A stretch of DNA of 64,000 nt, taken from an uncultured Candidatus Saccharibacteria bacterium. GTDB taxonomy: Bacteria; Patescibacteriota; Minisyncoccia; Phycocordibacterales; PALSA-1337. Where the stretch lies: NCBI GenBank assembly GCA_964529025.1, contig CAZGUZ010000002.1:6885-70884 (forward strand), in the 5' to 3' direction. Position 1 is the stretch's first letter; each line of letters begins with the position of its first letter. A program made the position numbers and the translations under genes. Below, piece after piece: positions 26,597 to 61,920 of this stretch. The notes below the pieces were generated by a model. The model was not told the DNA's origin and did no database searches. It saw only the letters and a program-made list of their open reading frames with translations.

Positions 26597-29500
26597 TTAT
26601 CGTGAATTCAATATCTTGCGAGTATTTACTCCGACATATCCTCGCTGATCCAAACCATTTTTCTTTTGGAGTTCAATAACTGCTGCTTTAGTTTTTTCTC
26701 CATAATATCCAGTTACAGGACCTGCATAAACACCGAGTTCAATGAGTCGCTTTTGAAGCTCTTCTACTTCAGAATTCTCCATGCCGAATTCCAAAAAGTT
26801 TTTAAACTCAAATCGAGCACTCTGCTGTGGAATTTGCGGAACCACTTGTGGCACAGTCTGGGACTCAATGTTTTGAGGTGCTGGTACTGAAACTGGGTTA
26901 GAATCTCCTGAAATAATAGTATTGAGCAATTCGCGAGTTAATGGACCAACTGTACCTACACTTGGTAAGCCGTATTGCTTTTGCAATTCCCGTACACCGG
27001 CCAGAGTTTTTATTCCAAAGAATCCTGTTGGTGGCACATCTATCATTCCCCTTTCAAAAAGAATTGCTTGAAGCTGTCGAACTTCGGTACCGATAGAACC
27101 AACACTAAGTTGTTGTGTGAATGTTCGTGGATTATTAGATGATATTCCCTGAGAAGAATTTTGCTGACTTGTATTTGGTAGCACAGTTACAGCTGGGGTC
27201 TGCACTGATGCTGGAGTTCTTCCTACATACGTTCTACTTGATCCGCCACCGCGACGCGAAGATCTCGCGGTTGGCGTGGCTGGCGCTTCTACGGCTGGTG
27301 CAATTTGTGTTGTAAATGTCTCAATTGAAGACGTAGCTTCATTCGCATATGCATCTAAGCTTAATACTCGATAGTAGTATGTTGTACTTGCAATAAGACT
27401 CGACAAAGTTACGCTATGTGATGTCACCAACGAAGAGCCAAGTGTCGACAAAGAACCTAGACTTAATGTTGTTCCGTATTCAACCTGCGAATCCGAAGCC
27501 TCATCAGTCGTCCAAGTAATGAGAGCAGCTGTCGAACTCGTACTTGTCGCATTAACACTACTTATAATTGGACTCGTAAGATCTGCCGTAAGGTTTAATA
27601 GTGTCGAGACGGTGTTGGCATTTCCTGCTAAATCTGTATATGTAGTTGTGCCTAGGACAAGATTCATTGCACCTTGTGCAACCGGTGCCACATTAAATGT
27701 GTACACACTTTGAGAAGTTGTAGCAAATGACCCCACAGTTCCGTTTGTCACTGAGATATCATGTATTCCAAAAGTATATATATCACTTACACCCGTAACA
27801 GTGACAGTTGTTCCCGAAGATCCAACGGTACTCTGCCCAGCAGTAAGAGCAGCAGTTGGAGCTGTAGTATCAACAGTAACTGTTGTTGCACTTGAAGTTG
27901 CACTATAATCTGATCCAACTTGTTGCACTGCCGAAATTGCATAACTACCATCAGATAATGCTGATGAAGTAATTGTCCAAGTACCACCAGATTCTGAAGC
28001 AGAGCCAATGAGCGTACTACCCCCTTGATACAAATAGACCGTTGCAGAGGTTGATGCTGTACCCGTAAATGTTGGAGTCGTATCATTTGTAACTCGGTCA
28101 GAATTTGAAACCCCGGAATCAGAGGCCGAAGAAAGTGTCGGTGCAGCAAGTGTAGCTACAATTGCTTGAGTAGATGTTCCAGCGAGCGTTGTAATTGTTG
28201 TTCCACTTGATGTTGCAGTATTACCTGATGCATCCACTGAGACCACTCGGACATAGTACAAAGTACTTGTTGCAAGATCACCCACGGTAATATCATGCGA
28301 CGTGACCAAAGAAGGATTAAGTGCGGAAAGTGTTCCATAGCTCAAAGTTGTACCGTACTCCACTCGAGATGTAGCAGCCTCATCAGTTGTCCATGTAACT
28401 CTAATATTTGTTGTTGCTGTACTTGTAGCAGAAAGACTTGAGACAACTGGCGGTGTCGTATCAGCAACCTCACCCGTACCCACTACTGCCGAGTTTGTTG
28501 TTCCTGAACCTGTAACTGTCTGCACCTTGTAGAAATATTGTTGGCCAGTCTGAACATCGAAAGTGTCAACAAAACTTTCAGTGGTTGAGCTTAAATATTC
28601 AGAAACTACATTCTGCGTAAATATATTATTTGTTGCGCGCACTAAATACACATCGGCAGAAGTTGGCTCATTATTGTCCCATGTAACTGTCACAGTATTA
28701 CCCACTCGATTCACCGCAACATTAGTTGCAGCATCTGGACCATCGGTTGTTGGGAATTCAGTATCAAGATCCCAACTTGATTTCCATGGAATAGTCATAA
28801 TGGTACCTGTACCCATAGTAATTGGTAGCCAAACATGACGAGAACCGTACAATGAACCATTGTTTACATCGGTATAATTAAATCTATCTCCCATATAGAT
28901 ATAACTTCCTGCTCGGCCTGGAATTTCAAGAATATGTGTTGTCTGTGATCTAAAAGCAAGTGTATAGTCTTCTTCTGCACTTGGAAGGAATGGGTTAACA
29001 CGAGTTGACCATGTGCCAAGTACACCAGTTGTCGATGTTGCATACGTGTTCATGTTTGGAGCCCAACCTGAAAGTCCCGAGGTCACCAAATAGTGAATAC
29101 CGTTTCTGATAAACATAGCTGGGGCTTCGCGACCATTGTGGTTAGCTGGGTTTAAGAATGTTTCTGTAGTACCAAGATAATCATCGGTGAGCAAAGAGAT
29201 AAAGAACTTTGTATTGATACCGTTTGAATAAAGCACATATGCTTTACCATCAGCATCCTTAAAGAGGTTCATGTCGTTGAGACCTTCTCCATTTGGATTG
29301 TATGTTGTAGAAAAAATGGTAAATGGACCCGTTGGATTATCTCCGTATGCAATAAAAGCTCGAGAGTTTGGATAACTAATCACATTGTGACCCCACATAA
29401 CATACTTACTTGTTGTGGCATTGTAAATCACGTGTGGTCGCTCAATAATATGCAATCGTCCTCCGTAAACAATTGGTTGTTCTTCGGTCCAGTTCAAAAG

Positions 29501-32500
29501 ATCGTTTGATGAATATACCGAAACGCCCACAGCTTCGATTTCTGGACTATCAGTATTCATAATTTGACCGTACCAATAGTACTTACCGCGTGTGTACAAA
29601 ATGTTTCCATCGTGTGACTCGATAAGGCGACTGTTCATGTCGTACCAATCACCCGCTGGGAAAAATCTTCGCTCAATAGAAATTCGAGCAGTCACTGAAG
29701 GTTCAGACACAAAGTAGTCCCCACCAACATTACTTACAGCAATAGCAATAACTTGTGTTGTTGTAGCGACTCTAAAGGGACCTGTATACAATTGCGTTGT
29801 ACCTTGTGGCATTCCACCACTAAACACCGGTGTTGTACCATCGGTTGTGTAGTACAAAGTTGCATCAGTTGTTCGACTCGATAGTCGTACACGAATTGGG
29901 TCACGATAATATCCTCCTCCTGGAGAAACTCGTGGTGCTACAGGAATAAACGGTGACGATGTTCCTGCAAGACCGATGATTTTAAATTCTGCAAGGTTTG
30001 CACTTGAATAGTCAGCGGCAACTAATCGTAGATAACGGTAAGCCTGGCCGCCACTATCAACAGGAACTTCTGTCACATGACGCTGTGGAAAGTATGGTGG
30101 TGTATATGGTGTTGTACTTGCAACCGTATGAATAACTGTCCAAGGACCAGTCGTTGAACTTACGTTAGATCCTTGAAGCTGAACTCCATATACTCGGGCT
30201 GTATATCCACGACGTGGAGCTAAGCCAATTGCTGTAGGAATAAATGCTGCTTTGGCGTCAACGCTGGCATAAGCACCAGAAACTGTTGCAGAGTCCCACC
30301 ATGTTTCAACATTGTTATCGTAGAGCTTTGCATAGGTGTTTCCACTGTTAAGATAACTTCCTGCGGTTCCGTTTTGATATGCGGGGTGAACATATAACTG
30401 AACCTCTCCATCAACATCAGCCAAAGGACATGCTGCTGTCGTAAATGAACGAGTTGTACCGTAGCGCGTACCGGCGACGTTTGTTGCATATGCACGATAG
30501 AAATATGTTGCTCCACATGCTAAATCACCTGTAACGGTCGTTGTTGCAAAGTCACCAACTCCAGACGTGCCTAAAATTGTTGATGTCGCGCCGAACGTTG
30601 TTGTGATACCGTATGCAATTCCTCGAGCTGTCGTACTTGCTCCACCATCAGATGTTACTGATCCTGCAAGTAATGCTCTAAAAGCATATACCGTTGTTGA
30701 GGCTAAAGTTGTTACTGTTGGTGCAACCGAGTTAAGTACAGTTACGTTAACTGCAGTCGATGTTGCTCTATTACCTGCAATATCTTGAACTGTGGCCGAA
30801 AGTGTGTGTGCGCCATCTGTTGTTGTGAGAGAGTTCCATGTAATTGAATATGGCGATGTTGTACCCGATGAACCAATAGGAGAACCATCGAGATTAAACT
30901 GAACTGACGTTACCCGAACATTGTCAGTTGATGTTGCTGTAAGTGTAACTGAACTGCCGACAAGTGTTGCCCCAGCAGCTGGAGCTGTCATAGTAACAGC
31001 TGGTGCAATTACATCCGCAAGAACTGTTATTGATGTTGTAGCCGAACTTAACGGGTCTGTAATAATTAAAGTTCCCGTTGCTGAACCAGCATACAATACA
31101 ATTGATGCTGATAAAGAGTCAGCAACACTTTGTGACTGAATTGCCGCACCGTTTCCACCAGTTACCGTAAATGTTGGTGTTCCAGGAGTTCCTGCTGTCC
31201 AACCCGTAGCATTACCTGTCAAAGAAATGCTGGATGTGGCACCTTGCATTATTGTTGTTGTGCTTGGCGTAATCGTAATAAGCGAGTTATTAACATTAAC
31301 CGTAATTGTAGTTGAGGCCACATTACTTGATGCATCTGTCGCAATGGCTTTAATGGTGTGTGTACCGTCTGAGTAACCTGTAGTATTCCACGTAACACTA
31401 TGGGGCGACGTTCCACCAGCACTGCCAACTTGCACCCCATCAACCTGAAGAACAATTGAGTTGAGCAAAACATCATCAGTTGATGAAGCTGTAATTGTTA
31501 CACTACTACCAAGAACTGTAGCATCCTGAAGTGGTGCTGTAATTTCTACCTGAGGAGCAGTTGTATCAGCAGAAAGTGAAAAATCGGCAGTTGCGGTATT
31601 TGATGTCGAAGAACCTGCCGCTGTTATTGTTCGAATTCGATAAAAATAACTTGTATCATTGGTGATATCTGGATCATTCAAAGATAATGTTGTTGAGCCA
31701 AGCAACAATGCTCGCAAATTTTGTGTAAAGTTTATATTTGTAGCTCGCTCAAGGTAGTTATCAAAGGCAGTACCGTTGGTGCTCCATGAAAGATCTACCG
31801 AGAGGCCATTTTTAACACCCACCAAACTTGAAACAGCCGTTGGTGGGGTCGCTGTAACGAAGAATGAATCGAGGTTCCAACTTGAATACCACGAAATAGA
31901 CATAGTATTTACTGTTGGAAACGTAATTGGCAGCCATACAAACCTTGAGTTATACAGTGAACCTGTTGCATATGCTGAGTTATCAAAGCGATCACCTATA
32001 TATACAAAACCATCTGTTCTACCTTCAACTTTAAGTACTTCACTTGGCTGTGAAGCAAAGCCGGTCGAATTATCAAAAAGACTACTACTCTGAAATGGAT
32101 TCACTGGATACGAGTACGTACCGAGTGGGGACGAAGACGTCGAGTACTTTACTAGTGTATGTGCAAAAGTTGCACTGGTACTTGCTGTCATCAAATAATA
32201 CACATCACCGTACCTAAACATTACCGGCGTTGCTCTGTTTGCAAGCGCGGCCACGTTAACAAAACTACCTTGAGGCGACAAATAGTCGCTGCTCAATTGA
32301 GCAACAACGATACGTGTTGTGTCCGAAGAAGCATGAGCAACGTAACCGGTTCCGTTATTATCTACAAACAAGTCGAGATCGTTATTTCCAAAGCCACTAA
32401 TATCAAGGCGTGTATTATAAACCCTGAAAGGACCGTACGGTTTTGACGATGTGGCAACCATAGCTCTACCCGCAGAAGCATTTCGAGCCCACATAACATA

Positions 32501-33589
32501 GGTACTACTTGCAGCATTGTAAATCACACGAGGGCGAGTATATCTAATACTTGAAGAAGCTATCATAAAGCCTTCATACTTCCAGTTTAAAAGATCGTTT
32601 GATGAATATGCGACGATTCCACCAAGTTCGACTTCTGGCGTACTATTGTTATACGACTCTCCATACCAATAGTATTTACCGTCCAAATAACTGATACCTC
32701 CCGTGTGTGCATCAATAAGCTGGCCACCATTTACATTCCTCCACTCATTTCCCGGGGTAAAGTTGGGTGCAATATAAAAATATGCAGGATCAGAAATTTC
32801 TGAAGAATTTGTGCCACCAAGCACCGCTATTGCTTTAATAGTTGTAGTTGCCGTACTCGTAATTAAGAATGGGTATGTATACGCCTGCGTGGTTCCCTGT
32901 GGTACTCCTGCTGTAACAACAGGGTTTGTTCCGTCAGTTGTATAGTACAAAGAAGCATCCGTTGTAAGACTTGCTAAGGTTACCAATGTTGATGTTGCAT
33001 AACGACCACCATGAGGAGTAATCGTTGGTGTTACAGGCGTGTACGGAGTACTACTTGAAGCAATACCAATCATGCGCAACTCTGCCACCGAACCATAAAA
33101 GTTATTCTGAGTTAATACTCGATAGTAGCGGTAATACTGGTTTCCCGTATCAATAGAAATTTCATTGAGCTGCTTTTGCGGATAATACGGTGGCATACTT
33201 GGTACCGTATAAATTGTTGTCCATGGTCCGGTTGATGAACTTACATTGGCACCTTGAACTATTGCCCCTACAAGTCGCGGAACATAGCCCAAACGCGGTG
33301 CAATTCTAATTTTTGTTACTTTTGCAGCCGACAAAAGATCAAGGCCTACGTATCCTTGCGCAACCGAAGAGTCCCAGTGAGTTGTAAGGTCACTATCAAA
33401 TACCTTAGCAATCGTGTTGCCGTTATTACCAAAACTTCCCGCCGTACCAATCTGATACTGTGAGGCAATACTAAATTGAACTTCGCCCGTAGCGGCATGG
33501 ACCAGAGTCGGAGTTGTAGCAAAACAAAGAGCACTGTAGAGTAGCGCAACAAAAAATACTGGGGTCAGCTTGTTCACCAGACGATACAT
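26597..33589 (-). CDS. Giant (~2330-aa) secreted multidomain protein: 2x [F5/8-type C (discoidin) + GH43-like 5-bladed beta-propeller], FN3/Ig-like repeats, 2 C-terminal peptidoglycan-binding (PG_binding_1) domains
   Basis: Signal peptide at MYRLVNKLTPVFFVALLY. Discoidin-like segments read NTIAKVFDSDLTTHWDS and NTYAKLYDNNVETWWDS. Propeller signatures read DGKYYWYGE..SSNDLLNWK and RGKYYWYGQ..SSNDLLNWT. The C-terminus has two LQ..L...G.....G.FG..T..AV..LQ PG-binding repeats. Confidence 0.8.
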   Translation of the reverse strand: MYRLVNKLTPVFFVALLYSALCFATTPTLVHAATGEVQFSIASQYQIGTAGSFGNNGNTIAKVFDSDLTTHWDSSVAQGYVGLDLLSAAKVTKIRIAPRLGYVPRLVGAIVQGANVSSSTGPWTTIYTVPSMPPYYPQKQLNEISIDTGNQYYRYYRVLTQNNFYGSVAELRMIGIASSSTPYTPVTPTITPHGGRYATSTLVTLASLTTDASLYYTTDGTNPVVTAGVPQGTTQAYTYPFLITSTATTTIKAIAVLGGTNSSEISDPAYFYIAPNFTPGNEWRNVNGGQLIDAHTGGISYLDGKYYWYGESYNNSTPEVELGGIVAYSSNDLLNWKYEGFMIASSSIRYTRPRVIYNAASSTYVMWARNASAGRAMVATSSKPYGPFRVYNTRLDISGFGNNDLDLFVDNNGTGYVAHASSDTTRIVVAQLSSDYLSPQGSFVNVAALANRATPVMFRYGDVYYLMTASTSATFAHTLVKYSTSSSPLGTYSYPVNPFQSSSLFDNSTGFASQPSEVLKVEGRTDGFVYIGDRFDNSAYATGSLYNSRFVWLPITFPTVNTMSISWYSSWNLDSFFVTATPPTAVSSLVGVKNGLSVDLSWSTNGTAFDNYLERATNINFTQNLRALLLGSTTLSLNDPDITNDTSYFYRIRTITAAGSSTSNTATADFSLSADTTAPQVEITAPLQDATVLGSSVTITASSTDDVLLNSIVLQVDGVQVGSAGGTSPHSVTWNTTGYSDGTHTIKAIATDASSNVASTTITVNVNNSLITITPSTTTIMQGATSSISLTGNATGWTAGTPGTPTFTVTGGNGAAIQSQSVADSLSASIVLYAGSATGTLIITDPLSSATTSITVLADVIAPAVTMTAPAAGATLVGSSVTLTATSTDNVRVTSVQFNLDGSPIGSSGTTSPYSITWNSLTTTDGAHTLSATVQDIAGNRATSTAVNVTVLNSVAPTVTTLASTTVYAFRALLAGSVTSDGGASTTARGIAYGITTTFGATSTILGTSGVGDFATTTVTGDLACGATYFYRAYATNVAGTRYGTTRSFTTAACPLADVDGEVQLYVHPAYQNGTAGSYLNSGNTYAKLYDNNVETWWDSATVSGAYASVDAKAAFIPTAIGLAPRRGYTARVYGVQLQGSNVSSTTGPWTVIHTVASTTPYTPPYFPQRHVTEVPVDSGGQAYRYLRLVAADYSSANLAEFKIIGLAGTSSPFIPVAPRVSPGGGYYRDPIRVRLSSRTTDATLYYTTDGTTPVFSGGMPQGTTQLYTGPFRVATTTQVIAIAVSNVGGDYFVSEPSVTARISIERRFFPAGDWYDMNSRLIESHDGNILYTRGKYYWYGQIMNTDSPEIEAVGVSVYSSNDLLNWTEEQPIVYGGRLHIIERPHVIYNATTSKYVMWGHNVISYPNSRAFIAYGDNPTGPFTIFSTTYNPNGEGLNDMNLFKDADGKAYVLYSNGINTKFFISLLTDDYLGTTETFLNPANHNGREAPAMFIRNGIHYLVTSGLSGWAPNMNTYATSTTGVLGTWSTRVNPFLPSAEEDYTLAFRSQTTHILEIPGRAGSYIYMGDRFNYTDVNNGSLYGSRHVWLPITMGTGTIMTIPWKSSWDLDTEFPTTDGPDAATNVAVNRVGNTVTVTWDNNEPTSADVYLVRATNNIFTQNVVSEYLSSTTESFVDTFDVQTGQQYFYKVQTVTGSGTTNSAVVGTGEVADTTPPVVSSLSATSTATTNIRVTWTTDEAATSRVEYGTTLSYGTLSALNPSLVTSHDITVGDLATSTLYYVRVVSVDASGNTATSSGTTITTLAGTSTQAIVATLAAPTLSSASDSGVSNSDRVTNDTTPTFTGTASTSATVYLYQGGSTLIGSASESGGTWTITSSALSDGSYAISAVQQVGSDYSATSSATTVTVDTTAPTAALTAGQSTVGSSGTTVTVTGVSDIYTFGIHDISVTNGTVGSFATTSQSVYTFNVAPVAQGAMNLVLGTTTYTDLAGNANTVSTLLNLTADLTSPIISSVNATSTSSTAALITWTTDEASDSQVEYGTTLSLGSLSTLGSSLVTSHSVTLSSLIASTTYYYRVLSLDAYANEATSSIETFTTQIAPAVEAPATPTARSSRRGGGSSRTYVGRTPASVQTPAVTVLPNTSQQNSSQGISSNNPRTFTQQLSVGSIGTEVRQLQAILFERGMIDVPPTGFFGIKTLAGVRELQKQYGLPSVGTVGPLTRELLNTIISGDSNPVSVPAPQNIESQTVPQVVPQIPQQSARFEFKNFLEFGMENSEVEELQKRLIELGVYAGPVTGYYGEKTKAAVIELQKKNGLDQRGYVGVNTRKILNSR

Positions 33590-33625
33590 ACATACAGTAT
33601 AACACCGGCAAAAGCTCAACGGGGC

Positions 33626-40301: not shown

Positions 40302-42752
40302 TTATTCGCTTATCCCTTGTAATTGCTGAGCTTTTTTATATGATAGCGGACCAAAGGTTCCAGTTCCTGTTGTGTGGCCAAGTGGGGCAAGTATGTCTGC
40401 ACTATAAGCCTCTTGATAACGCTTAACAGCTAAGTATGTTCGCACTGAATATAAATCAGTTTCATTTCCCAAAGAGCCTGGACCAGAGCGAGCAAGGTTA
40501 AATCCTAAACAATTCAAATACTTTTGTAGTCTTTGTACATCCTCACCTTTCATTCCTGAACGAAGTGTGCGATTAAGTGCGCCAAGCTTACATGAGGCAC
40601 TTACATTATGCTGAACATTTTGCTCAACACTAGGTTGCGCCACACTTTGTGCTACTTTTTGCACACTAGCCACTTGTGGCCATTCTTGCTGCAAGCGATC
40701 TGCTTCTTGTGACAAACCGAGGCGATTAAGATTTTGTATACGCTCGCGAACCGACGTCACTGAACGACTTCCTGTTTGTGCAGCTGACACTGGCGCTGTG
40801 CCGTACAAAGCAAAAACTGAAAAGTGAGGCGCTGTGCAACTTACTTGATTAAGACCAGTATTTACTGAACATGCATCAAGTTGCGACCAAGTTCCCGATC
40901 GATAGTGGTAGAGCGTAATTGTATTTTCATCGAGACCCTGAACATCGGCATCTGTATACGTATACGTAATTGTCACAGGAGTATTGAACGATTCAAGAAT
41001 GGTTGTGCCGTCGATAAGAGCGGTGACTTCAAATACAACAAGAGCGGCGCGCTCCTTATCAGCAGTAGCGTCACCAATTCCCGACAAAACATCTGCAGCT
41101 GGCAAAGCTTTGATCTGAATAACGATAGAAGATGACGATGCTGTAACAAACTCTGGTACCTCTACAGTAAACGTTCTGCCATCATCAACAAACTCTATTG
41201 TTGATGTAGCATCGGTACTTACCGTCGTCGTAGTTGCTGCCGTTGGAGTCTGACTTGCAGGACAACCAAGAGTTGTAATTGCCGTTGTCGATGTTGCGGT
41301 ATTGCCCGTTGCGTCTCTTGATACAAGATCGAGTGTGTATGCAATACACGGAACTAATGAAGAAAGAGTAACTTCATGTTCTGTCACACGCGTAGAAGTA
41401 TTAATTTCTGGTGTTGAAGAGCTCACCCCAGGACCAACTTGAAACCAAACCTTAGAAGAAGCGAGCTCATTTGTATTCCATGTCACAATTGCCGAAGTTG
41501 TAGCAATTTCAGTTGCCACATTTGTTATTACTGGAGCTGTTGTATCTGATGTTGTTAAACGCCATTCTGAGCTTTCGGTAATTCCAGCAAAGTTATTACT
41601 CGAAGCATCACGCAAAGCGCCGTTCGGAATAATAACGTAGAGTTGAGTACCCTCAGGTAAGTTTACTGTTGGATTAATGGTAATTTGTGTTGTACCTCCA
41701 CCTGTTACTGCTCCACTTGTTACATCGATAGTTTCTACAGTACTGTCGTCTGATACTTTCTTAATAAGAATATTACCCGAGTTTGGACTTACTGCTTTAC
41801 TCAAAGTAATAACCAAATTTGTTGAAGAACTTACGAGGGTTGCGCCATTCACCGGCGACAGTGTTGCCACAGCAGGAACATCAGCAGTTACCACAGAAAT
41901 TGTTGTAGCAACTACGGTAGGCAGATTCCCCGGTGTACCAAATTCTGCAACGTATCCAGAAAGATTATTACTTGTACAATTTAGGTCGTTCCATTTAGTG
42001 GTAGAAATATAAAATTGAATACAATCTTCACCAGGAGTACCATTCAGCCAGTCATTAGGCTCACCCGAGCTCCAGTTTGCATATTGTCCAGGAGCAGCCG
42101 AACCACCAGAGGCACCTGTCCAGAACAATGTACCCGATTCAGGTCCTGTAACCCAACGCCACTGCCCTTCGGTTCCTTCATCACTACCACCAACCCAACC
42201 ATCACCCTGCAAACGTGCAGCCACGAAATCATTCTCTGCCTGAGAAGTAATTGTTGCCAAGTAGCCACTTACACCGTATGCAGACTGTGTTGCAGCTTGA
42301 GTCCGTGCATTAAGAGCATTAATACTACCCGTTATGAATTTATACAAATGACCATTGTCAGGAAAAAATACTTCCCCAGGTTCAACCAAAGAGACTTCAA
42401 GTGTGTCAGTGCCGGTGCTTGCGCGCGAATATTTAAGTGTAGCTAAAGCGTTATTAATGTTTGCTACAGTTCCATTAAAACTCACTGTTGTTCCAGAACT
42501 TGGACCGCTAAAAGTAAGGCCCGTAGTAGAAGTCATCGATAGAGTTCCGTATGTTGAACGCAAACGAACCGGCGTTGTTGAAGCAGAAGGTCCAACAATT
42601 TGAAAACCAGTAATTGATGTAGCCACACTTGGTGTCGTTGTTGCATTGTCACCACTTTGAAGTGTAAGGGCCGCTTGTGCATATGAAGCATACCCCAGGA
42701 GGAGCATACTATAAAATACTGTACTCAGAAGAAAGCCGAGTCCTTTTTTCAT
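40302..42752 (-). CDS. Secreted surface protein: C-type lectin domain (EPN and WND motifs) + Ig-like repeats + C-terminal peptidoglycan-binding domain
   Basis: Signal peptide at the N-terminus. The CTLD reads GYLATITSQAENDF...WVGGSDEGTEGQWRWV...YANWSSGEPNDWL...EDCIQF...KWNDLNC. The C-terminus carries a GEDVQRLQKYLNCLGF PG_binding_1-like repeat. Confidence 0.75.
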   Translation of the reverse strand: MKKGLGFLLSTVFYSMLLLGYASYAQAALTLQSGDNATTTPSVATSITGFQIVGPSASTTPVRLRSTYGTLSMTSTTGLTFSGPSSGTTVSFNGTVANINNALATLKYSRASTGTDTLEVSLVEPGEVFFPDNGHLYKFITGSINALNARTQAATQSAYGVSGYLATITSQAENDFVAARLQGDGWVGGSDEGTEGQWRWVTGPESGTLFWTGASGGSAAPGQYANWSSGEPNDWLNGTPGEDCIQFYISTTKWNDLNCTSNNLSGYVAEFGTPGNLPTVVATTISVVTADVPAVATLSPVNGATLVSSSTNLVITLSKAVSPNSGNILIKKVSDDSTVETIDVTSGAVTGGGTTQITINPTVNLPEGTQLYVIIPNGALRDASSNNFAGITESSEWRLTTSDTTAPVITNVATEIATTSAIVTWNTNELASSKVWFQVGPGVSSSTPEINTSTRVTEHEVTLSSLVPCIAYTLDLVSRDATGNTATSTTAITTLGCPASQTPTAATTTTVSTDATSTIEFVDDGRTFTVEVPEFVTASSSSIVIQIKALPAADVLSGIGDATADKERAALVVFEVTALIDGTTILESFNTPVTITYTYTDADVQGLDENTITLYHYRSGTWSQLDACSVNTGLNQVSCTAPHFSVFALYGTAPVSAAQTGSRSVTSVRERIQNLNRLGLSQEADRLQQEWPQVASVQKVAQSVAQPSVEQNVQHNVSASCKLGALNRTLRSGMKGEDVQRLQKYLNCLGFNLARSGPGSLGNETDLYSVRTYLAVKRYQEAYSADILAPLGHTTGTGTFGPLSYKKAQQLQGISE

Positions 42753-46398: not shown

Positions 46399-48534
46399 TT
46401 ATCTAACTTCGAGTGACAATGTTCCTATTGTATATGTTCCGTGAACGCCTGTACAATGCACACTAATATCATACGTACCTGGTTCAACACTCGAAGTGGT
46501 TGATACTATTCCAGTATCTTGATCAATCGTAATATTTGAATAGCTATCTGATGATCCACCTGAAATAGTAGCGATTGAACAGTTACTGTAGTAACCAATG
46601 ACACCGGTACTTGTTTCGCCAGCTTGAATTGTTTGTGTTGAATCTGCATATGGCGAAGCATCAAAACCGCTCAAGACATAAGGAGTATTTACTGCAATTG
46701 ATCGCCAAATTGTCCCGATACCCGTCAATACAATATCGGCATGCGACGACGTCCAACCAGAAACCCCATTAGCTGCTTCAGAGTAGCCTCCTGAAATCGA
46801 AGCTGAAAAACCTCCGCTTCCTGTAAAGCCTTGATCGGATAAACCTGCTCCAGCTGTATAGACATTACTTGCCGACACTCCAGTGAACGACGTTCCGAAT
46901 ATACCACCTGAACTTGACCCTCCCATGTCTCCGGTTGTGTATGAATTAGAAACTGTGCTGAGCGAAGCATTTGAACCAACAATACCACCACCGCCCGAAG
47001 ATATTGCACCCGTACTATAAGAATCGCTCACCGCTGCAGAGTTTGAACCCAAGCCAACAATTCCTCCACCATTTATACCGATAGCACCTGTCGAATAACA
47101 TCTTGAAACACTTACCATTTCGCTATTTGCACCAACAATTCCGCCTCCACCGGTACTTATATCACCGCTACTACTACAATATTCAAACTCATTACCGTTA
47201 GAGCCCTTTCCAAAGTAGCGCTGCCCTAGCCATCCAGCATTTGTTGCAAGGGTACTACTAACTTCATTCACAGCAATATTTGATACCGTAACATTATTGT
47301 ATCCATCAGCAACCGCTGTTCCGTTTTGAATAAAACCAGGGTAATTACTTACAGTATGTACCGTAATAATTGTTGGTTGTGTAGAGTTGCCGTTTTCACC
47401 TCTAATTTCAATATCATCAGAACCGATAATGATGTAAGAGTTTGCTGAACTTATCGTAAAATCACCCACAAGATGTACAACAAGAGTTCCTGAACCACCA
47501 TTTTGTATTGTTGGGAACAACGTTTGTGTCCAACTATTTCCATCGCCGCTAAACTCAAGTTCACTACCGTTTTGACGAAGATATAAAGTATCAACACCCA
47601 CGAGCGTTGCCCCAACACCTGCAGCTATAACTGCACTTTCAAAACCAACCGTACACGAACCAGTAATTGTCCCTGTTGTATATGTTGAATGCACCCATGT
47701 TCCCGTTGGGCATGTACCACTAACAGTACCTAAACCGTACCCTAATCCAGACTCTGCGGTGAATGACGCTGTTGAACCATGATTAACAGTTCGCGCTCCA
47801 CTCGGTGAGATTCCAATACCACTCAATATTACGGTGTACGAATTAATTGAAGCATTAAAGATTACTGAACATGAAGCATTAATTGCTCCTGTGGTATATA
47901 TCGAACCGTTCCATGTTCCAGCTGGACAGGTTCCACCAACACTTATGGTATATCCCGTTGGAGCGGTAACTGTATATGATTCAGTTGCACCAAAAGAAGT
48001 AATACGCGGTGATAGTGAACTTACTGTTACATTACTACCCGCACTCGACAATACAGCATATGAATTTGAAGAGCCTCGGCCGCCCCTTGATTTACGCACC
48101 TTTGCTGTTGTTGTAGCTTCATCTTCTATAACTTCTTGAACGGGAACAATTTGCTGCTCTGCAATAAGTGAATTGTTAACAAAAGTACGCGTTGCCGAAA
48201 AGAAATTCCCTGTAGGGTATATTAAACCGAGCGGTGCTAATATTTGTTGCGAGAACTGCTGTTGGAGTCGCATTACAGCTGCCCGAGTTTTTGCTCCAAA
48301 AAATTGTGTCTCTTGCCCGAGTGAACCTTCACCTGATTCGGCAACATTAAAACCGTGAGTATTAAGGTATTTTTGAAGGCGCTCTACATCAATACCATTC
48401 GATCCTGGTTTAAGATCTTGCGTAAAAAGCTCTGGAGCTTGAGTCTGGGCTTGCGCTGCGTATGGGCTCAATTGTAAACAAAATACACCGAGCGCAATCA
48501 AACAAGTGTTCCCTAACGTACGCAAAATATTCAT
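46399..48534 (-). CDS. Secreted protein with N-terminal peptidoglycan-binding domain and Gly/Ser-rich beta-helix-like repeats
   Basis: A signal peptide is followed by GIDVERLQKYLNTHGFNV...AVMRLQQQF (PG_binding_1). Repeated GGGGIVG.NS / GGGIVGLGSN / SGGIFGTSF units follow. Confidence 0.65.
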   Translation of the reverse strand: MNILRTLGNTCLIALGVFCLQLSPYAAQAQTQAPELFTQDLKPGSNGIDVERLQKYLNTHGFNVAESGEGSLGQETQFFGAKTRAAVMRLQQQFSQQILAPLGLIYPTGNFFSATRTFVNNSLIAEQQIVPVQEVIEDEATTTAKVRKSRGGRGSSNSYAVLSSAGSNVTVSSLSPRITSFGATESYTVTAPTGYTISVGGTCPAGTWNGSIYTTGAINASCSVIFNASINSYTVILSGIGISPSGARTVNHGSTASFTAESGLGYGLGTVSGTCPTGTWVHSTYTTGTITGSCTVGFESAVIAAGVGATLVGVDTLYLRQNGSELEFSGDGNSWTQTLFPTIQNGGSGTLVVHLVGDFTISSANSYIIIGSDDIEIRGENGNSTQPTIITVHTVSNYPGFIQNGTAVADGYNNVTVSNIAVNEVSSTLATNAGWLGQRYFGKGSNGNEFEYCSSSGDISTGGGGIVGANSEMVSVSRCYSTGAIGINGGGIVGLGSNSAAVSDSYSTGAISSGGGGIVGSNASLSTVSNSYTTGDMGGSSSGGIFGTSFTGVSASNVYTAGAGLSDQGFTGSGGFSASISGGYSEAANGVSGWTSSHADIVLTGIGTIWRSIAVNTPYVLSGFDASPYADSTQTIQAGETSTGVIGYYSNCSIATISGGSSDSYSNITIDQDTGIVSTTSSVEPGTYDISVHCTGVHGTYTIGTLSLEVR

Positions 48535-56675: not shown

Positions 56676-57779
56676 CTAAGGGTACTGAAACAAATTATTC
56701 AAATCAAGTATCCTTCCTATACTTTCTGCACGACCTGTTTCTACGAATGTAGGTATACCCAAAACGCAACCGGAATCCTTGACTGCTATTCCACCAGAAT
56801 TTCCATGCTCTATTTTTGCGGAGGTTTTTATATACCTCACCCCATTATCATCTTCAAAGCCAGAGATTATACCATCCGTAACAGTAAGAGATGAACCACC
56901 AACTCCAGGATATCCTAAAACAGATAAGTGGTCCCCGATACTTACAGACTTACAATAAGTAGTTAAATTTTTACTTTTAGCATATTTTGCTAAATCATTC
57001 TTGTTGCCAGCACGCGCTGTGTTTATGATCTGGGGAAAGATATAAGCAAAATCTGTACCGTACTTATATATTTGGTATCCAGAGGACTTATATACTAAGT
57101 AATTATCGGTCTCACGATAATTTGGATACAGGATCACAGCGCACTGCGATGTCGATCCATCTGATGTTTCAACAACGTGAAGATTGGTCTCTATAAAATA
57201 TGCTGATGGATCGTTTGATGGAGAATAATAAAGGAGACCGGACCCGACCTGCAAGTTGTCACCGTAGGCATCTGAGGCACACACCACCTTCACAACAGCT
57301 GAAGATAACGACGACAGCAAGTTACTTATATTCCCAGAAGGGTTTTGCCTTGTATTCGAATTAATGTCAGCTTCGAGCCTTTGAATTTGAGTATCTTTCT
57401 TGCTTAACTCTTTTTCTTGAGTAGTAAGTCGCTGAGTCGTTGAAGAGGCCATATCCAGTAATTTTGCCTGTGTTTCTTGTAATTGCTTTGAAGTTTGCAG
57501 AATCACTGATTGAGTTTTTTTATATGATTCATACAGGTGTTGCCAAGCGAGAATTGCAGATACTGCGAGTAAAACAGCTAGAATAATTCCCCCTATCACT
57601 AATGGGCTAGTTTTTTTAGTCTGTTTGACTTTTCTCATTGTCAAAGACACGTACGTCGAGACTCTTTTTACTAATGTATTCTGAAGAAAAAAACTATTGT
57701 TATGGACTTCTTTTCCACAATTGTCACAAAAATTATGCCCCTCATCAATTTCCATGCCGCAGTTACTACAAAAAACCAT
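56676..57779 (-). CDS. Zinc-ribbon / TM / coiled-coil / trypsin-like (S1) serine protease fusion protein
   Basis: The N-terminus carries CSNCG...CDNCG, a 4-Cys zinc ribbon. A single TM helix and a Q/E-rich coiled coil follow. The C-terminal domain has GNSGGIAV (the GDSGG-type catalytic Ser motif) and an upstream His/Asp. Confidence 0.6.
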   Translation of the reverse strand: MVFCSNCGMEIDEGHNFCDNCGKEVHNNSFFLQNTLVKRVSTYVSLTMRKVKQTKKTSPLVIGGIILAVLLAVSAILAWQHLYESYKKTQSVILQTSKQLQETQAKLLDMASSTTQRLTTQEKELSKKDTQIQRLEADINSNTRQNPSGNISNLLSSLSSAVVKVVCASDAYGDNLQVGSGLLYYSPSNDPSAYFIETNLHVVETSDGSTSQCAVILYPNYRETDNYLVYKSSGYQIYKYGTDFAYIFPQIINTARAGNKNDLAKYAKSKNLTTYCKSVSIGDHLSVLGYPGVGGSSLTVTDGIISGFEDDNGVRYIKTSAKIEHGNSGGIAVKDSGCVLGIPTFVETGRAESIGRILDLNNLFQYP

Positions 57780-57784
57780 ACTAT

Positions 57785-58870
57785 TTATACAGATAAAAGA
57801 AAACTTTTTACTCTATCATTATAAATTTTATAATATTCAAGACTACTTTGTGCAGAAGAATTGTAATCTTTCAAGTAATACTCCATTGATTTACAGAGGT
57901 AGTTGGCGGCATAGTACAAATCGTCTGCAGCATTTACGTAAGTAGACGGCATGCCTGTGAATCTGTCATTTAGTTCTAAAGCATCACTTTGCGCCGTACT
58001 ACATGCTGAAATTGCGGCTCCGAGATACAGGTTGGCAGAGTTATACTCACCATCATTCCAATCTGTTATCCCTTTTAATGCATTACCGAGTCCGTTTGAA
58101 GTAAGATTATTGTATATAGTCGTCAATTGACTGACAAAAGATTTTGCGACCTCTAGCGAACGAGCCGCAGATGCTTTTGATTGAGCATCGATTGCTGCTT
58201 GTTGTGCATTTTGCTCAGCTCTAACCTTTGCGGCTTGAGCAGCCGCTGCTGCTGCCTTATTCTTTTCTGCCTGTGCCGCAGCTACTACAGCCTCTCTCTT
58301 ACTTGTGTTTACCTCACCTTCAAGCACAAGTACAAGACTATCCTGTACTTTTTTTATTTCGGCTTGAACATTTTCATATTCTGGGTAACTCGAATCTATT
58401 GATTGAAGTTCGCTGAGAGCTTTCTTTAAACTGCCAGATGAAGTGGTTGTTGCTGTTGAAGTAGCATTTTGGATTGCAACAGCATTGTCGAACGATGTCT
58501 TGAAAGAAATAAATTTTAGACCGTCAGACCTTATAGTATCTATTCTGGATTTTTGACTTTCTGATATTTTTTTATTTTCTAACTGGAGCAAAGTGTTGAT
58601 TGACTCCTTGTAGTTACCAGTCGATTGCAATTCTTTTGCTGAGTTTATTTTTGACTCAACTAAATAATACGCATATCCCTTTGATCCACCGTAAACTAGA
58701 CCGCCTAAGAATATTAAAATTACTATCGTCAATACGATTGGGCTTCTCCAGGTGAGCTTAAAAGAATACTTTGCAGTAACTTGTCGAGATAATTCTAGCA
58801 AATCACTTCCGCAAGACCGACAGAACCTACTACCTGAACGATTTTCCTTGCCACATTGATCGCAATGCAT
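57785..58870 (-). CDS. Zinc-ribbon / TM / Ala-rich coiled-coil extracytoplasmic protein
   Basis: The N-terminus carries CDQCG...CRSCG, followed by a TM helix and a long Ala/Gln-rich helical region. The architecture parallels the neighbouring protease fusion. Confidence 0.5.
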   Translation of the reverse strand: MHCDQCGKENRSGSRFCRSCGSDLLELSRQVTAKYSFKLTWRSPIVLTIVILIFLGGLVYGGSKGYAYYLVESKINSAKELQSTGNYKESINTLLQLENKKISESQKSRIDTIRSDGLKFISFKTSFDNAVAIQNATSTATTTSSGSLKKALSELQSIDSSYPEYENVQAEIKKVQDSLVLVLEGEVNTSKREAVVAAAQAEKNKAAAAAAQAAKVRAEQNAQQAAIDAQSKASAARSLEVAKSFVSQLTTIYNNLTSNGLGNALKGITDWNDGEYNSANLYLGAAISACSTAQSDALELNDRFTGMPSTYVNAADDLYYAANYLCKSMEYYLKDYNSSAQSSLEYYKIYNDRVKSFLLSV

Positions 58871-59248
58871 TTTAGTTAAATTAATCTTAACACTAATAAT
58901 AATTTATTAAAAAGTTCAAAACTCGCCATAGAAACCTTACTTGTTTCCTATCAGCCTAGATAAATTAGATGATAGATTCTTTACTCTTTGTCCAAATTTT
59001 ATCTACACCTTCAATCTACTTGCCATTCTAGGTTGTATGTTAGTTATCCTTTATATAAAATACCACACTAATGTGTATTCTAAAAAAAATCCACATTCAT
59101 CAATACCTTAACTATCACTATTTTATCTTACTTTCATATTTTACCATATAAGTATTTTTAGTTGTTTTAATTTTATCTTCTGACATCGGGTAAGTATTAA
59201 AGTACACGTCTGGATATTTGATAGTCAGATTCATGCTCACTAACGCTT

Positions 59249-59869
59249 CTACATGTTTAATTCAAGATATCCCCATGACAATAAGATTATCGCGATTATA
59301 AACGAAATCACAAAAAAGATATTAAGGGATTTGAGTATTTTAAAATCAAGTTGCCTATTTTTTGCTTCTTGCCTCTCCTTTACAGCTGCCTTCAACTCAT
59401 CCTTTTGCGCAAAATAATTTTCTATTTCAGATATAATCTCTTTGTCTAATTTTTGATCTTGTTTTCTTTTGATCGCCGATAATTTATTACAAATACTGAT
59501 TGCACCTTGCTGAAATTTGACTAATAATTCCCTCTCCCACTTATCATCACTCAATATAGACTTCTTATCTCTTTCAATAACCATGGCGAGAATAACTATT
59601 CCACAGAGAGTAGTCAGAATAAAAAATACTACAGTTAGTATCAATACGCGAGAATGACCAATTTGAATAGTTGGTGCAACAACTGTTAGAAATGCAACGC
59701 TAATTGACGACAGTGCGAGAACAAGATTAAATCCTCTATCTGCATTTCTGTATTGTAAATCTGCAGTCTTCTGAGATAAGCTAATTAATTGTTGAGTCCA
59801 ATTATCCGAGGTTTCAGAAAAAACTGCTATTAGGTTATCCAATTCATTTGAAATCATTTTTACATGCAT
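59249..59869 (-). CDS. Hypothetical membrane protein (3 TM)
   Basis: Hydrophobic segments with charged coiled linkers. The ORF abuts the next gene with no gap. Confidence 0.45.
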   Translation of the reverse strand: MHVKMISNELDNLIAVFSETSDNWTQQLISLSQKTADLQYRNADRGFNLVLALSSISVAFLTVVAPTIQIGHSRVLILTVVFFILTTLCGIVILAMVIERDKKSILSDDKWERELLVKFQQGAISICNKLSAIKRKQDQKLDKEIISEIENYFAQKDELKAAVKERQEAKNRQLDFKILKSLNIFFVISFIIAIILLSWGYLELNM

Positions 59870-60547
59870 TTAGCCTCTTAATCTACTTAAAGCAACTTTA
59901 GTTGCTTCTCGACGTAATTCAGTTAGAGTATTTATTCCCAATATTTCTCTTATTATTTCGACTACTTCTTCTATTGCCATTTTAGACTCCTCATCATTCT
60001 CACTTTTTGTATGTCCCAAAACAAGACCTAGTAATCTATAAACTCTTTTGACTGTATCATCTCTTTCTTTGCCAAAACCTTGATAATCTAAAAGATTTTC
60101 TTTTGCACCCATTTCAATTAAAGCAGTTTCAATTGGTCTTAATTCACCTTCAATCTTTTTTGTAAGCCATGCTGAATGTTTTTGGCGTATATTTACCAAT
60201 TCCCTACCTATATTCATTAAATTCTTAGAAGCACCGTCTCTATATATTTCCTGTAGTCCTTTTTGCAATCTATCTACGTATTCTTCACAAAACAATGCGT
60301 GTTTGTCATAAGCAACTTTAGCCATATGAGAAGCTGTTCCTAAAATAAAGTCTTGTTGTTCATTTTGCAATTGTTCATCCTTCCACGTTTTATAAAGAGA
60401 AAGACACAAAGCTCCAATCCCGGGTATAGCTGCAATACCTTTAAAGACCTTGTCTATAGGAAGATAGTATGCGGATAAAAAAGAGGCGGCTAATACAATT
60501 ATTAGCAATATATAAGTTGACCAATTTTTAATTTTAATATTTTTCAC
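59870..60547 (-). CDS. Hypothetical protein with N-terminal TM anchor
   Basis: The ORF fills the interval with a single N-terminal TM. No motif was recognised. Confidence 0.45.
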   Translation of the reverse strand: MKNIKIKNWSTYILLIIVLAASFLSAYYLPIDKVFKGIAAIPGIGALCLSLYKTWKDEQLQNEQQDFILGTASHMAKVAYDKHALFCEEYVDRLQKGLQEIYRDGASKNLMNIGRELVNIRQKHSAWLTKKIEGELRPIETALIEMGAKENLLDYQGFGKERDDTVKRVYRLLGLVLGHTKSENDEESKMAIEEVVEIIREILGINTLTELRREATKVALSRLRG

Positions 60548-60577
60548 ATCTTTCTTTAACTAGTTCAAACAGATTAC

Positions 60578-60692
60578 GGGGCTTGGACTCGCCCTCGCCT
60601 CTCATCTCGCCGTCGCTCGATTCGGGCTGGGCACCGCCTCGCAGTTCGCCGTACTCGGCTCACATAGCTCCGGCGTTCTCGTCATCATACCC
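60578..60692. repeat. Direct repeat copy 2 (~115 bp, GC-rich) beginning with a 15-nt copy of the tRNA-Gln 3' end
   Basis: The sequence cggggcttggactcgccctcgcctctcatctcgccgtcgctcgattcgggctgggcaccgcctcgcagttcgccgtactcggctcacatagctccggcgttctcgtcatcataccc matches 61588..61702 with one mismatch. Its first 15 nt are the reverse complement of CGAGTCCAAGCCCCG from the tRNA T-arm/acceptor 3' side. Confidence 0.8.
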
Positions 60693-60834: not shown

Positions 60835-61524
60835 CTAGGAAATCTTGCCATTAATATAATCTTTTACTGCTTTTATAACACTCACGACCTCTTCTCCAAA
60901 TTTATCTTCCTTATCATTGAGCCAATCGCCCTGATTGTACATGATATTATGTATTTCCATGTAGTCCTTGGTTCTAATTTTTGGCTGGAAATTCTGCTTT
61001 AAGGCAATATTTAAATCTGTTATCTTTACATAAAGAGGTTTGACTATTTGCCTAACTTCAGGCCCCCACAACACCTCAGCTTCAAGTAAATTTGATTCCA
61101 TTTCGGTAGACGCATTCGTGATTTCCTCCCACCTCATCTCATATACATATGGATGAACGTTCTTCTCCAATTCCTCTTTGAGTTTATCTGGATACTTTGT
61201 CCTTGCATATTGAATCGCTCTATAATCCTCCGAAGGAAATATGGCTGGATTCCTGACGTGCTTTATTGCATCCCTAAGTTTTAGGAGAGATAGATGTAAA
61301 TTATCAGCAACTTCACTTTTGATTTGCTTTCTCCATGTAAACAAACCGCCACTAGCAATATAAAGACCCGTCACCGTTAATATCAATGTTACCCAATCGT
61401 TTAAAAAAGGATAAACTGGGTGAACAAAAAACGCAGGGTAAAGGCGGTAAAAAACTAGTCCGGAGATGGATACAGCGAGGATCCAGAAAAATACTCCCTT
61501 AACGCTAACACTGTCTTTCACCAT
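60835..61524 (-). CDS. Hypothetical 2-TM membrane protein flanked by the two direct repeats
   Basis: The ORF has two N-terminal TM helices and an AT-rich composition. It is the only gene between the repeat copies. Confidence 0.5.
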   Translation of the reverse strand: MVKDSVSVKGVFFWILAVSISGLVFYRLYPAFFVHPVYPFLNDWVTLILTVTGLYIASGGLFTWRKQIKSEVADNLHLSLLKLRDAIKHVRNPAIFPSEDYRAIQYARTKYPDKLKEELEKNVHPYVYEMRWEEITNASTEMESNLLEAEVLWGPEVRQIVKPLYVKITDLNIALKQNFQPKIRTKDYMEIHNIMYNQGDWLNDKEDKFGEEVVSVIKAVKDYINGKIS

Positions 61525-61587
61525 GAGATTGATTATTACTACTTCCTACAGCTTTACTAATTGATACACCTCGTACAACTTGGCGGC

Positions 61588-61702
61588 GGGGCTTGGACTC
61601 GCCCTCGCCTCTCATCTCGCCGTCGCTCGATTCGGGCTGGGCACCGCCTCGCAGTTCGCCGTACTCGACTCACATAGCTCCGGCGTTCTCGTCATCATAC
61701 CC
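61588..61702. repeat. Direct repeat copy 1 (~115 bp) with the tRNA-Gln 3'-end core
   Basis: Near-identical to 60578..60692. The shared 15-nt core with the adjacent tRNA gene suggests an att-like junction. Confidence 0.8.
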
Positions 61703-61755: not shown

Positions 61756-61826
61756 GCTGCGGGGCTTGGACTCGAACCAAGATTCTACGCTCCAGAGGCG
61801 CATGTCCTACCATTAGACGATCCCGC
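61756..61826 (-). tRNA. tRNA-Gln (anticodon CUG)
   Basis: The reverse complement UGCGGGAUCGUCUAAUGGUAGGACAUGCGCCUCUGGAGCGUAGAAUCUUGGUUCGAGUCCAAGCCCCGCAG folds as a cloverleaf. It has U1-A72 and discriminator G (bacterial tRNA-Gln identity), U8, a GG in the D-loop, anticodon loop CU-CUG-GA with U33, a 5-bp T-stem CUUGG/CCAAG and a UUCGAGU T-loop. CCA is not encoded, and there is one A-C mismatch at the base of the acceptor stem. Confidence 0.8.
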
Positions 61827-61920
61827 AAAATTTTGTTATGCCTTATTACTGTACTCGCTATAACAATGTGCCACAAATAATACCTTAAAATGGGGTAAAA
61901 AGGAAGAGTGCGCCAAGTCT

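Follow-up and report, generated by a model that had tools for sequence, protein, structure and literature searches.

Here we describe a pair of adjacent genes at positions 56676-58870 of a 64,000-nt stretch of DNA (hereafter the window) from a bacterium of the Patescibacteria (Candidate Phyla Radiation, CPR). The pair is a newly described combination in which a PDZ-less, zinc-ribbon-anchored, stalked HtrA-type surface protease is encoded together with a helical membrane protein, which we refer to as the partner. The two genes form a tightly linked operon that is a rare accessory cassette, and no description of this architecture or cassette was found in the literature searched. Our favored reading, held tentatively and at slightly less than even confidence, is that the pair works as an accessory module for surface proteolysis, the partner taking over the recognition or gating that a PDZ domain gives canonical HtrA. 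Both open reading frames (ORFs) lie on the minus strand exactly where an earlier note on this DNA had placed them. That note took the protease gene as the first of the two, whereas on the coding strand it follows the partner gene at a distance of 5 nt.

The protease product matches Pfam Trypsin_2 (E 6e-12) and carries GNSGG at residues 326-330. Across an alignment of 31 of the clusters that share its full layout, H201, D243 and S328 are invariant, which bears out the S1 protease domain proposed in the earlier note. The context of D243, D-[FIV]-A-[YFL]-[IL], is typical of a catalytic Asp, and four more cysteines of the domain (C167, C213, C276 and C338) are invariant in the same 31 sequences. 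The AlphaFold2 (AF2) model, with a predicted local distance difference test score (pLDDT) of 84, consists of the ribbon, a continuous helix at residues 59-141 comprising transmembrane (TM) segment and stalk, and a terminal two-barrel protease domain. Searched against the PDB with Foldseek, this model retrieves only DegS, DegQ, DegP, HtrA1-3 and plant Deg proteases, at E values of about 1e-10 and with a best TM-score of up to 0.75 (on target); the top 50 matches are all DegS, DegQ, DegP, HtrA or Deg1. In a profile search of PDB sequences, TNLHVV and GNSGG align with the motifs around the catalytic His and Ser in solved Do/DegS chains. No PDZ domain was detected in the Pfam or NCBIfam search of the protease: the chain stops 39 residues after Ser328, and in the AF2 model these residues merely complete the second barrel. 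The NCBIfam models for HtrA, DegP, DegS and DegQ score 13-30 bits against cut-offs of 408-800. The assignment as a catalytically intact, PDZ-less serine protease of the HtrA/DegS type is strongly supported by these sequence and model comparisons.

Both products are predicted to cross the membrane once. The best 19-residue Kyte-Doolittle (KD) segment scores 2.33 in the partner (residues 45-63) and 2.91 in the protease (residues 60-78), compared to 0.64 and 1.4 for the next best segments. Lys and Arg residues on the N-terminal versus the C-terminal flank number 3 versus 2 in the partner and 5 versus 2 in the protease, and this pattern of one biased TM helix is found in nearly all homologues of both families. 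On the basis of hydropathy and the positive-inside rule, applied family-wide, a single-pass N-in/C-out orientation with cytoplasmic ribbons and the protease domain outside is strongly supported for the pair. The invariant cysteines of the protease domain and the Cys pair of the partner would fit an oxidizing, extracytoplasmic location. This is the topology that the earlier note had put forward.

Beyond the membrane, the protease continues into a stalk rich in Q, L, T, S and K, whose hydrophobic periodicity peaks at 3.55 residues (p=0.011). Heptad periodicity reaches z>2 in 27 of the 31 protease homologues. The earlier description of both proteins as carrying Q/A/E-rich coiled coils thus divides between them. 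The coiled coil applies to the protease stalk and not to the Ala-rich helix of the partner (residues 190-245), which lacks heptad (3.5-residue) periodicity; the Q/A/E-rich composition applies to that partner helix (57 % Q+A+E) and not to the stalk.

The N-terminal ribbons read C3-x2-C6-x10-C17-x2-C20 in the partner and C4-x2-C7-x10-C18-x2-C21 in the protease. Pfam Zn_Ribbon_1 (PF13240) scores 28.6 bits on the partner and 30.8 bits on the protease, both above the gathering cut-off of 25, and DZR and Zn_ribbon_3 are further Pfam ribbon assignments to the pair. All eight cysteines are invariant in the close families, which comprise 20 partner homologues (38-62 % identity) and 31 protease homologues, so that the ribbons noticed earlier at both N-termini persist in close relatives. 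More distant partners have lost theirs (L131, L132, P0178 and P0182) while the proteases of such loci keep them, and in one distant partner (P0171) a different small N-terminal domain replaces the ribbon. The earlier note spoke of a paralogous architecture. Likeness between the two products is confined to the N-terminal ~110 residues (26 % identity, E 8e-5); as far as sequence comparison goes, they share an anchor module but not their whole architecture.

The cytoplasmic end of the protease varies among its wider relatives. The unit of TM helix, stalk and protease occurs with a bare TM anchor (P0052), with a receiver domain followed by a TM helix (P0118, P0064 and many others) and with an extra extracellular domain and additional TM segments (P0070 and P0057), and the proteases with these alternative N-termini keep the four invariant cysteines of the protease domain. 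A receiver domain or nothing at the position of the ribbon makes this position look like that of a swappable cytoplasmic module. The receiver-bearing sisters (P0118, P0064 and ~30 others) suggest phosphorylation-controlled, inside-out regulation of a surface protease. At the one receiver-fused locus examined (L133:6001-7416), neither a kinase nor a partner nor a helix-turn-helix (HTH) gene stands beside the protease. The partner was seen only beside the zinc-ribbon clade of proteases.

The AF2 model of the partner is all-helical (pLDDT 83). A conserved membrane-proximal domain carries the motifs YAYY.VESKI, G[DN]Y.[GE]S and YP.Y, which are retained by the ribbon-less partner relatives of L131, L132 and L056. 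It is followed by a helix of 108 residues (165-272) that leads into the C-terminal bundle, itself modeled with confidence (pLDDT above 90). Within the partner family, conservation is highest in the ribbon (0.77) and, among the extracytoplasmic parts, lowest at the tip of the bundle (0.37). A profile of the partner searched against PDB sequences gave marginal ribbon matches only (E>=0.011), and Pfam 4HB_MCP, a four-helix bundle (4HB) family, found no match in the partner.

The two genes travel together. In every related locus with a readable protease position, the partner precedes the protease at a spacing of -1 to 8 nt (loci assessed: L001=L006, L002, L003/L004, L005, L007, L052, L053, L055, L124/L125, L126, L131 and L132), and this arrangement is kept even where the partners are just 29-32 % identical, including ribbon-less ones. 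Such conserved synteny excludes a chance adjacency of the pair. The flanks differ from genome to genome: topoisomerase/RelA/ParB, G6PD/YchF, serine recombinase/ParB_N/integrase, a restriction-modification (R-M) system, ArgRS/IleRS or TrmB/RNase Y. Relatives of the protease number in the hundreds, all of them from named or binned Patescibacteria (Paceibacterota, Nomurabacteria, Colwellbacteria and others), with the complete layout of zinc ribbon, TM helix, stalk and protease in ~35-40 clusters. The partner is much scarcer. Its close family comprises 20 clusters at 90 % identity, and an exhaustive profile search of 1.84 billion representatives yielded 52 clusters (50 % identity, E<=1e-30). A profile scan of 185,579 species-representative genomes found the full-length partner in three, and a scan of metagenomes found five true relatives. 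The matches in both scans were mostly unrelated proteins having the ribbon motif alone in common, a motif that recurs across many phyla. Variable flanks together with this rarity mark the cassette as an infrequent accessory unit moving en bloc.

In most relatives the cassette is preceded by a regulator. Eight of 12 distinct loci carry an XRE-family HTH gene, encoding 73 aa, immediately ahead of the partner gene, and upstream of the HTH gene a block of ~50 nt is common to seven otherwise unalignable sequences. The XRE gene with its operator is found at L001:6661-6930, L002:6597-6866, L003:6572-6841, L131:4535-4804 and L132:4586-4853, and also, at about 3960-4222, in L136, L140, L142 and L147. 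Within the block, the perfect palindrome CAATATC[C/T]AAA-N-TTTGGATATTG overlaps promoter-like hexamers, an arrangement expected of an autoregulated repressor. This head is not specific to the cassette. The HTH subfamily exceeds 1,100 protein clusters, with identities of 79-90 % in its top 120, and three independently chosen members have the same operator and different cargo. In L142-L146 the cargo consists of four different Cys4 zinc-ribbon proteins (L142:4001-7234): a soluble-looking protein of 250 aa whose ribbon is C-terminal, a divergent protease of the ribbon-TM-Trypsin_2 type that has a low-complexity linker where a coiled coil would be expected, and two membrane proteins, one joining a ribbon to DUF2569 and the other of ribbon-TM layout. 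In L136-L141 a 1.2-kb stretch without called genes directly follows the HTH gene (L136:4220-5418, the others alike) and holds uncalled small ORFs with signal-peptide-like N-termini, one of them Cys/His-rich. In L147-L149 the cargo is a soluble, helical 331-aa protein beside a large serine recombinase. Altogether the HTH/operator unit heads at least four unrelated types of cargo, often near serine recombinases, R-M or toxin-antitoxin genes, and mean identity across the cassette loci is 75 % for the HTH protein, 45 % for the partner and 53 % for the protease. The XRE/operator unit thus looks like a portable regulatory head for variable cassettes in Patescibacteria, and a generic HTH with unrelated cargo is weak evidence for a dedicated signaling partner of the ribbons.

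The copy in the window is built differently. Positions 58871-59248 contain no XRE ORF, tblastn with three cassette HTH proteins gives nothing there, and the operator is absent from the whole window when up to 3 mismatches are allowed. A minus-strand frame in this interval reading KFGQRVKNLSSNLSRLIGNK resembles by eye the start of an XRE protein; given the empty tblastn search and the missing operator, it was rejected as chance. The remark in the earlier note that the pair has no obvious partner regulator agrees with this result, as neither an HTH remnant nor an operator nor a sigma factor was found in the window, although relatives usually have an adjoining regulator. Coordinates of the pair and its parts are collected in Table 1.

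Table 1. Positions in the window of the two genes, the region upstream of them and the features predicted in their products
Feature	Position	Strand	Remarks and basis
Partner gene	57785..58870	minus	361 aa; first of the pair on the coding strand; ORF listing
Protease gene	56676..57779	minus	367 aa; second of the pair on the coding strand; ORF listing
Intergenic region upstream of partner	58871..59248	minus	378 nt; site of XRE gene and operator in relatives, neither present here
Partner residues 1-25, predicted cytoplasmic Cys4 zinc ribbon (MHCDQCGKENRSGSRFCRSCG)	58796..58870	minus	Cys invariant in 20/20; conservation 0.77
Partner TM helix, residues 44-66, predicted N-in	58673..58741	minus	19-residue KD 2.33; helix in AF2 model
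Partner residues 67-160, conserved membrane-proximal helical domain	58391..58672	minus	Conservation 0.55; pLDDT 85-90
Partner residues 165-244, first part of long helix, including Ala/Gln-rich stalk 190-245	58139..58378	minus	AF2 model
Partner residues 245-360, C-terminal four-helix bundle with Cys pair C290/C326	57791..58138	minus	Most variable extracytoplasmic part
Protease residues 1-25, predicted cytoplasmic Cys4 zinc ribbon	57705..57779	minus	Cys invariant in 31/31
Protease TM helix, residues 59-80, predicted N-in	57540..57605	minus	19-residue KD 2.91
Protease residues 81-141, predicted heptad-repeat coiled-coil stalk	57357..57539	minus	AF2 helix 59-141; periodicity test
Protease residues 150-367, HtrA/DegS-type chymotrypsin-fold domain	56679..57332	minus	Pfam, alignment, Foldseek, PDB profile search
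Protease H201	57177-57179	minus	
Protease D243	57051-57053	minus	
Protease S328	56796-56798	minus	

Functional coupling of the two products is argued by an adjacency that holds down to ~30 % identity between partners. In the mechanism we favor, both products would be anchored side by side in the membrane and form a complex. The heptad stalk places the protease domain ~60 residues from the membrane and would probably support the trimer typical of HtrA proteases, an assembly with which it is compatible. The partner would provide substrate or ligand recognition or gating in place of the PDZ domain, and extracytoplasmic proteins would be cleaved just for certain targets or under certain conditions. 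In most relatives the cassette would be transcribed behind the portable XRE repressor/operator head; lacking it, the copy in the window would have to be expressed from another promoter. A number of points weigh against this proposal. Adjacency and common anchoring do not prove a complex of partner and protease, and the partner could equally be a substrate of the protease rather than its adaptor. The zinc ribbons, which are the most conspicuous common feature of the pair, get no role in the adaptor model. In the literature searched, no paper describes a member of the family. The length of the protease stalk tends to follow the TM-to-tip length of the partner, from 77 with 161 residues to 94-96 with 189-193 residues, but the correlation (rho 0.59, n=11 loci) falls short of significance (p=0.056) and is drawn from phylogenetically non-independent loci.

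The fold of the protease invites a comparison with DegS/RseA-like signaling, in which a cue at the bundle tip would lead to site-1 cleavage of the partner and, after further processing, release a ribbon peptide acting on a target such as the XRE repressor. We consider this distinctly unlikely for the present pair, while acknowledging what speaks for it. The best structural matches of the protease are DegS chains, the layout of the partner is RseA-like, with a small cytoplasmic N-terminal domain, one TM helix and an extracytoplasmic C-terminal domain, and the ribbon is its most conserved region. The XRE repressor and operator stand directly upstream at two thirds of the loci, and zinc-ribbon proteins, a protease among them, also make up a second type of cargo behind the same HTH. 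Yet the HTH subfamily far outnumbers the cassette and heads unrelated, ribbon-less cargo; it does not occur at 4 of the 12 loci, among them the window and one (L125) closely related to a cassette that has the HTH (L053); and distant partners have lost the ribbon while cassette and HTH persist. No linked site-2 protease was seen either. The earlier note had likened the module to signal-transducing or anti-sigma-like ones, and of this the likeness to a signaling protease stands at the level of the fold, as does the single-pass N-in layout with an extracytoplasmic C-terminal domain that anti-sigma proteins of this type display; membership of the anti-sigma group does not. The zinc-binding anti-sigma (ZAS) motif H-x3-C-x2-C is absent from the pair, no anti-sigma family of Pfam or NCBIfam matches it, and no sigma factor gene adjoins it in the window or in the 12 related loci. 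Two CPR sigma-like proteins gave nothing when compared to the window by tblastn, and the sigma-sized ORFs of the window carry no sigma domains. Judged by motifs, domains and gene content, the pair is not an anti-sigma module.

A broader proposal, which we regard as a long shot, treats the ribbons as signaling devices and the pair as a previously undescribed trans-envelope relay in Patescibacteria. Such a relay could run in either direction. In a possible outside-in version, the tip senses a cue, the protease cleaves the partner and the ribbon peptide antagonizes the operator-bound XRE repressor. In a possible inside-out version, the ribbon governs how the extracellular protease oligomerizes and how active it is, as the receiver domain of the sister proteins would. 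The high conservation of the partner ribbon, the frequent HTH/operator head and the second, zinc-ribbon type of cargo are compatible with a relay.

Another explanation concerns what the pair does for its bearer and could be true alongside the adaptor mechanism. The pair, expressed with a repressor-like HTH, would be the cargo of mobile elements and serve in inter-organism conflict or surface remodeling: surface proteins would be degraded or modified to exclude phages or rivals, or the pair would act on the host of an episymbiont, with the tip recognizing the target. This is unlikely on present evidence, though it draws on several features of the loci. The cassette is rare and has a different neighborhood in each genome, among them a large serine recombinase, ParB_N and an integrase (L003/L004), an R-M system (L125) and HicA with ParE (L131). 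The same HTH head lies beside a serine recombinase in L147 and beside a methylase and HEPN/MNT in L142. The HTH is ~75-90 % identical across lineages whose partners are 30-50 % identical, suggesting horizontal spread, and no extracytoplasmic region of the partner varies more than the bundle tip. The window pair itself is located in a stretch of low GC content, next to a tRNA-Gln with tRNA-like repeats. Against this, the enzymes of that stretch are of the housekeeping type and no integrase is among them, and no mobility genes occur in the fetched flanks of L001, L002, L126 and L132. Searches for defense and phage relatives returned little. PADLOC-DB 2.0 gave only the RT-Protease_XI protease domain (E 1e-9) and the JetC coiled coil (E 6e-5) for the pair and nothing for its neighbors; these being generic domains, the pair was rejected as a defense system. 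Matches to PHROGs were weak, the partner profile found no relative in 2.9 million viral contigs, and BFVD viral structures gave no match at E<0.05. Two viral contigs match the operator pattern, yet neither has a gene of the cassette. On these results a phage origin was rejected, and the pair is not detectably phage-borne.

The plainest alternative is envelope quality control, with the protease as a membrane-anchored HtrA equivalent and the upstream gene unrelated but co-transcribed. The S1C fold with its intact triad fits this account, and so does the wide occurrence in Patescibacteria of the stalk-protease unit with other N-termini; Gram-positive HtrA proteins are likewise N-terminally anchored surface proteases (reviewed in PMC12826053). 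A housekeeping gene would not, however, be expected to be as rare (3 of 185,579 genomes) and as prone to shifting location as the zinc-ribbon clade with its partner, the PDZ domain of canonical HtrA is absent, and an adjacency surviving to ~30 % partner identity argues for functional coupling. We therefore judge this account very improbable and retain the accessory surface-proteolysis module with a recognizing or gating partner as the preferred reading.

A scan for promoters and terminators around the pair gave no more matches than in shuffled sequence. No Pfam or NCBIfam match was obtained for the 195-aa gene downstream or for the three membrane-protein genes upstream, and none of these genes is kept beside the pair elsewhere; a functional link to neighboring window genes is not supported by these comparisons. 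Directly upstream of the pair, two abutting genes (59249-59869 and 59870-60547, both on the minus strand) encode products that look by eye like membrane proteins; neither matches Pfam, NCBIfam, PADLOC or PHROGs, and neither is found beside the pair in other genomes.

The earlier note had placed the pair inside an island. In favor of this term, GC content is 0.35-0.38 at ~50.6-61 kb compared to ~0.41-0.43 in most of the remaining window, and the low-GC stretch ends near a tRNA-Gln(CTG) gene (61756-61827, minus strand) with tRNA-like repeats next to it. What the term lacks is an integrase or transposase, none of which was found in the 50-62 kb region by Pfam domain search. The genes of the stretch encode two NUDIX proteins, an inositol monophosphatase, a peptidase S51, an HD protein, an APH-type kinase and family-less membrane proteins, in addition to the pair. 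Two copies of a 116-nt direct repeat (60577-60692 and 61587-61702, 99 % identical, 1010 nt apart) enclose an ORF (60835-61524) for a family-less membrane protein. Read on the minus strand, the last 16 nt of either copy match exactly the 3' T-arm/acceptor part of the tRNA-Gln, a pattern with 3 occurrences compared to 0 expected; ARAGORN and Rfam do not call the copies tRNAs. The pattern is compatible with serial insertion at the tRNA, of which the repeats may be att-like scars.

Elsewhere in the window, two minus-strand genes (40302-42752 and 46399-48534) encode large predicted surface proteins with peptidoglycan-binding domains, one of which joins C-type lectin, bacterial Ig-like and PG_binding_1 domains, a combination unusual for a bacterium. 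Very large ORFs, also on the minus strand, are found at 26597-33619 (2340 aa), 20457-23762 (1101 aa) and 10124-13270 (1048 aa).

The biology of Patescibacteria, which are tiny and mostly episymbiotic, depends on the cell surface, and their surface proteins mostly lack annotation. The cassette offers a recognizable unit among them: a PDZ-less, stalked HtrA-type protease always encoded with a helical partner whose tip is variable. If the partner is a specificity or gating subunit, the pair would represent an alternative to the PDZ-based control of HtrA proteases and would provide a handle on the processing of surface proteins in this phylum, whether its own, those of the host or those of phages. 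For an uncultivated phylum, the XRE/operator head and its changing cargo provide a regulatory element that can be tested as it stands. Established knowledge is not contradicted, and the practical impact stays modest while a substrate is lacking.

Several known systems can be compared with this architecture. The N-terminal CxxC-x(n)-CxxC ribbon, single TM helix and extracytoplasmic domain recall TcaA of Staphylococcus aureus, to which residues 1-76 show an NCBIfam match (E 3.7e-4). The likeness ends at the anchor module, the extracytoplasmic parts being unrelated, and NF053815 scores 19.5 bits against a cut-off of 550. The bundle of the partner may be compared to the 4HB ligand-binding domains of chemoreceptors and sensor kinases (PcaY_PP 6s18, Tar/Tsr), but it is placed C-terminally on a stalk and not between two TM helices, and the partner has no HAMP, kinase or MA output domain. 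Designed bundles match the tip almost as well, so that homology to the 4HB sensors is not established.

Among the proteases, MarP (Rv3671c) of Mycobacterium tuberculosis is likewise a membrane-anchored, extracytoplasmic, PDZ-less S1 protease, with a weak NCBIfam match (E 9.6e-7). MarP has four N-terminal TM helices, compared to one TM helix with a ribbon and a stalk here, and at 28.1 bits against the NF033740 cut-off of 250 the window protease is not a member of that family. Gram-positive HtrA proteins (HtrA and HtrB of Bacillus subtilis, streptococcal HtrA) resemble it in having one N-terminal TM helix and an S1C protease outside a monoderm-type cell. They differ in carrying a C-terminal PDZ domain, in lacking the zinc ribbon, the long stalk and the co-transcribed helical partner, and in being housekeeping or stress genes rather than a rare cassette. 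A loose echo only is the upregulation of a zinc-ribbon membrane protein upon loss of HtrA activity in Clostridioides difficile (bioRxiv 10.1101/2024.03.08.584076).

The closest comparison is with DegS. The window protease departs from it in having no PDZ domain and in possessing a cytoplasmic zinc ribbon, a ~60-residue coiled-coil stalk and four invariant cysteines; the NCBIfam DegS models score 18-23 bits against cut-offs of 408-423, and no sigma or anti-sigma genes lie nearby. DegS (MEROPS S1C) is the site-1 protease of the RseA/sigma-E envelope-stress pathway of Escherichia coli. Like DegS, the window protease combines an N-terminal anchor with an extracytoplasmic chymotrypsin fold and a His-Asp-Ser triad, and it is encoded beside a single-pass, N-in membrane protein that is a possible substrate or regulator. 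With DegS, DegQ and DegP as its top matches, and given the role of DegS in the RseA/sigma-E pathway, its likeness to a signaling protease is real at the level of the fold.

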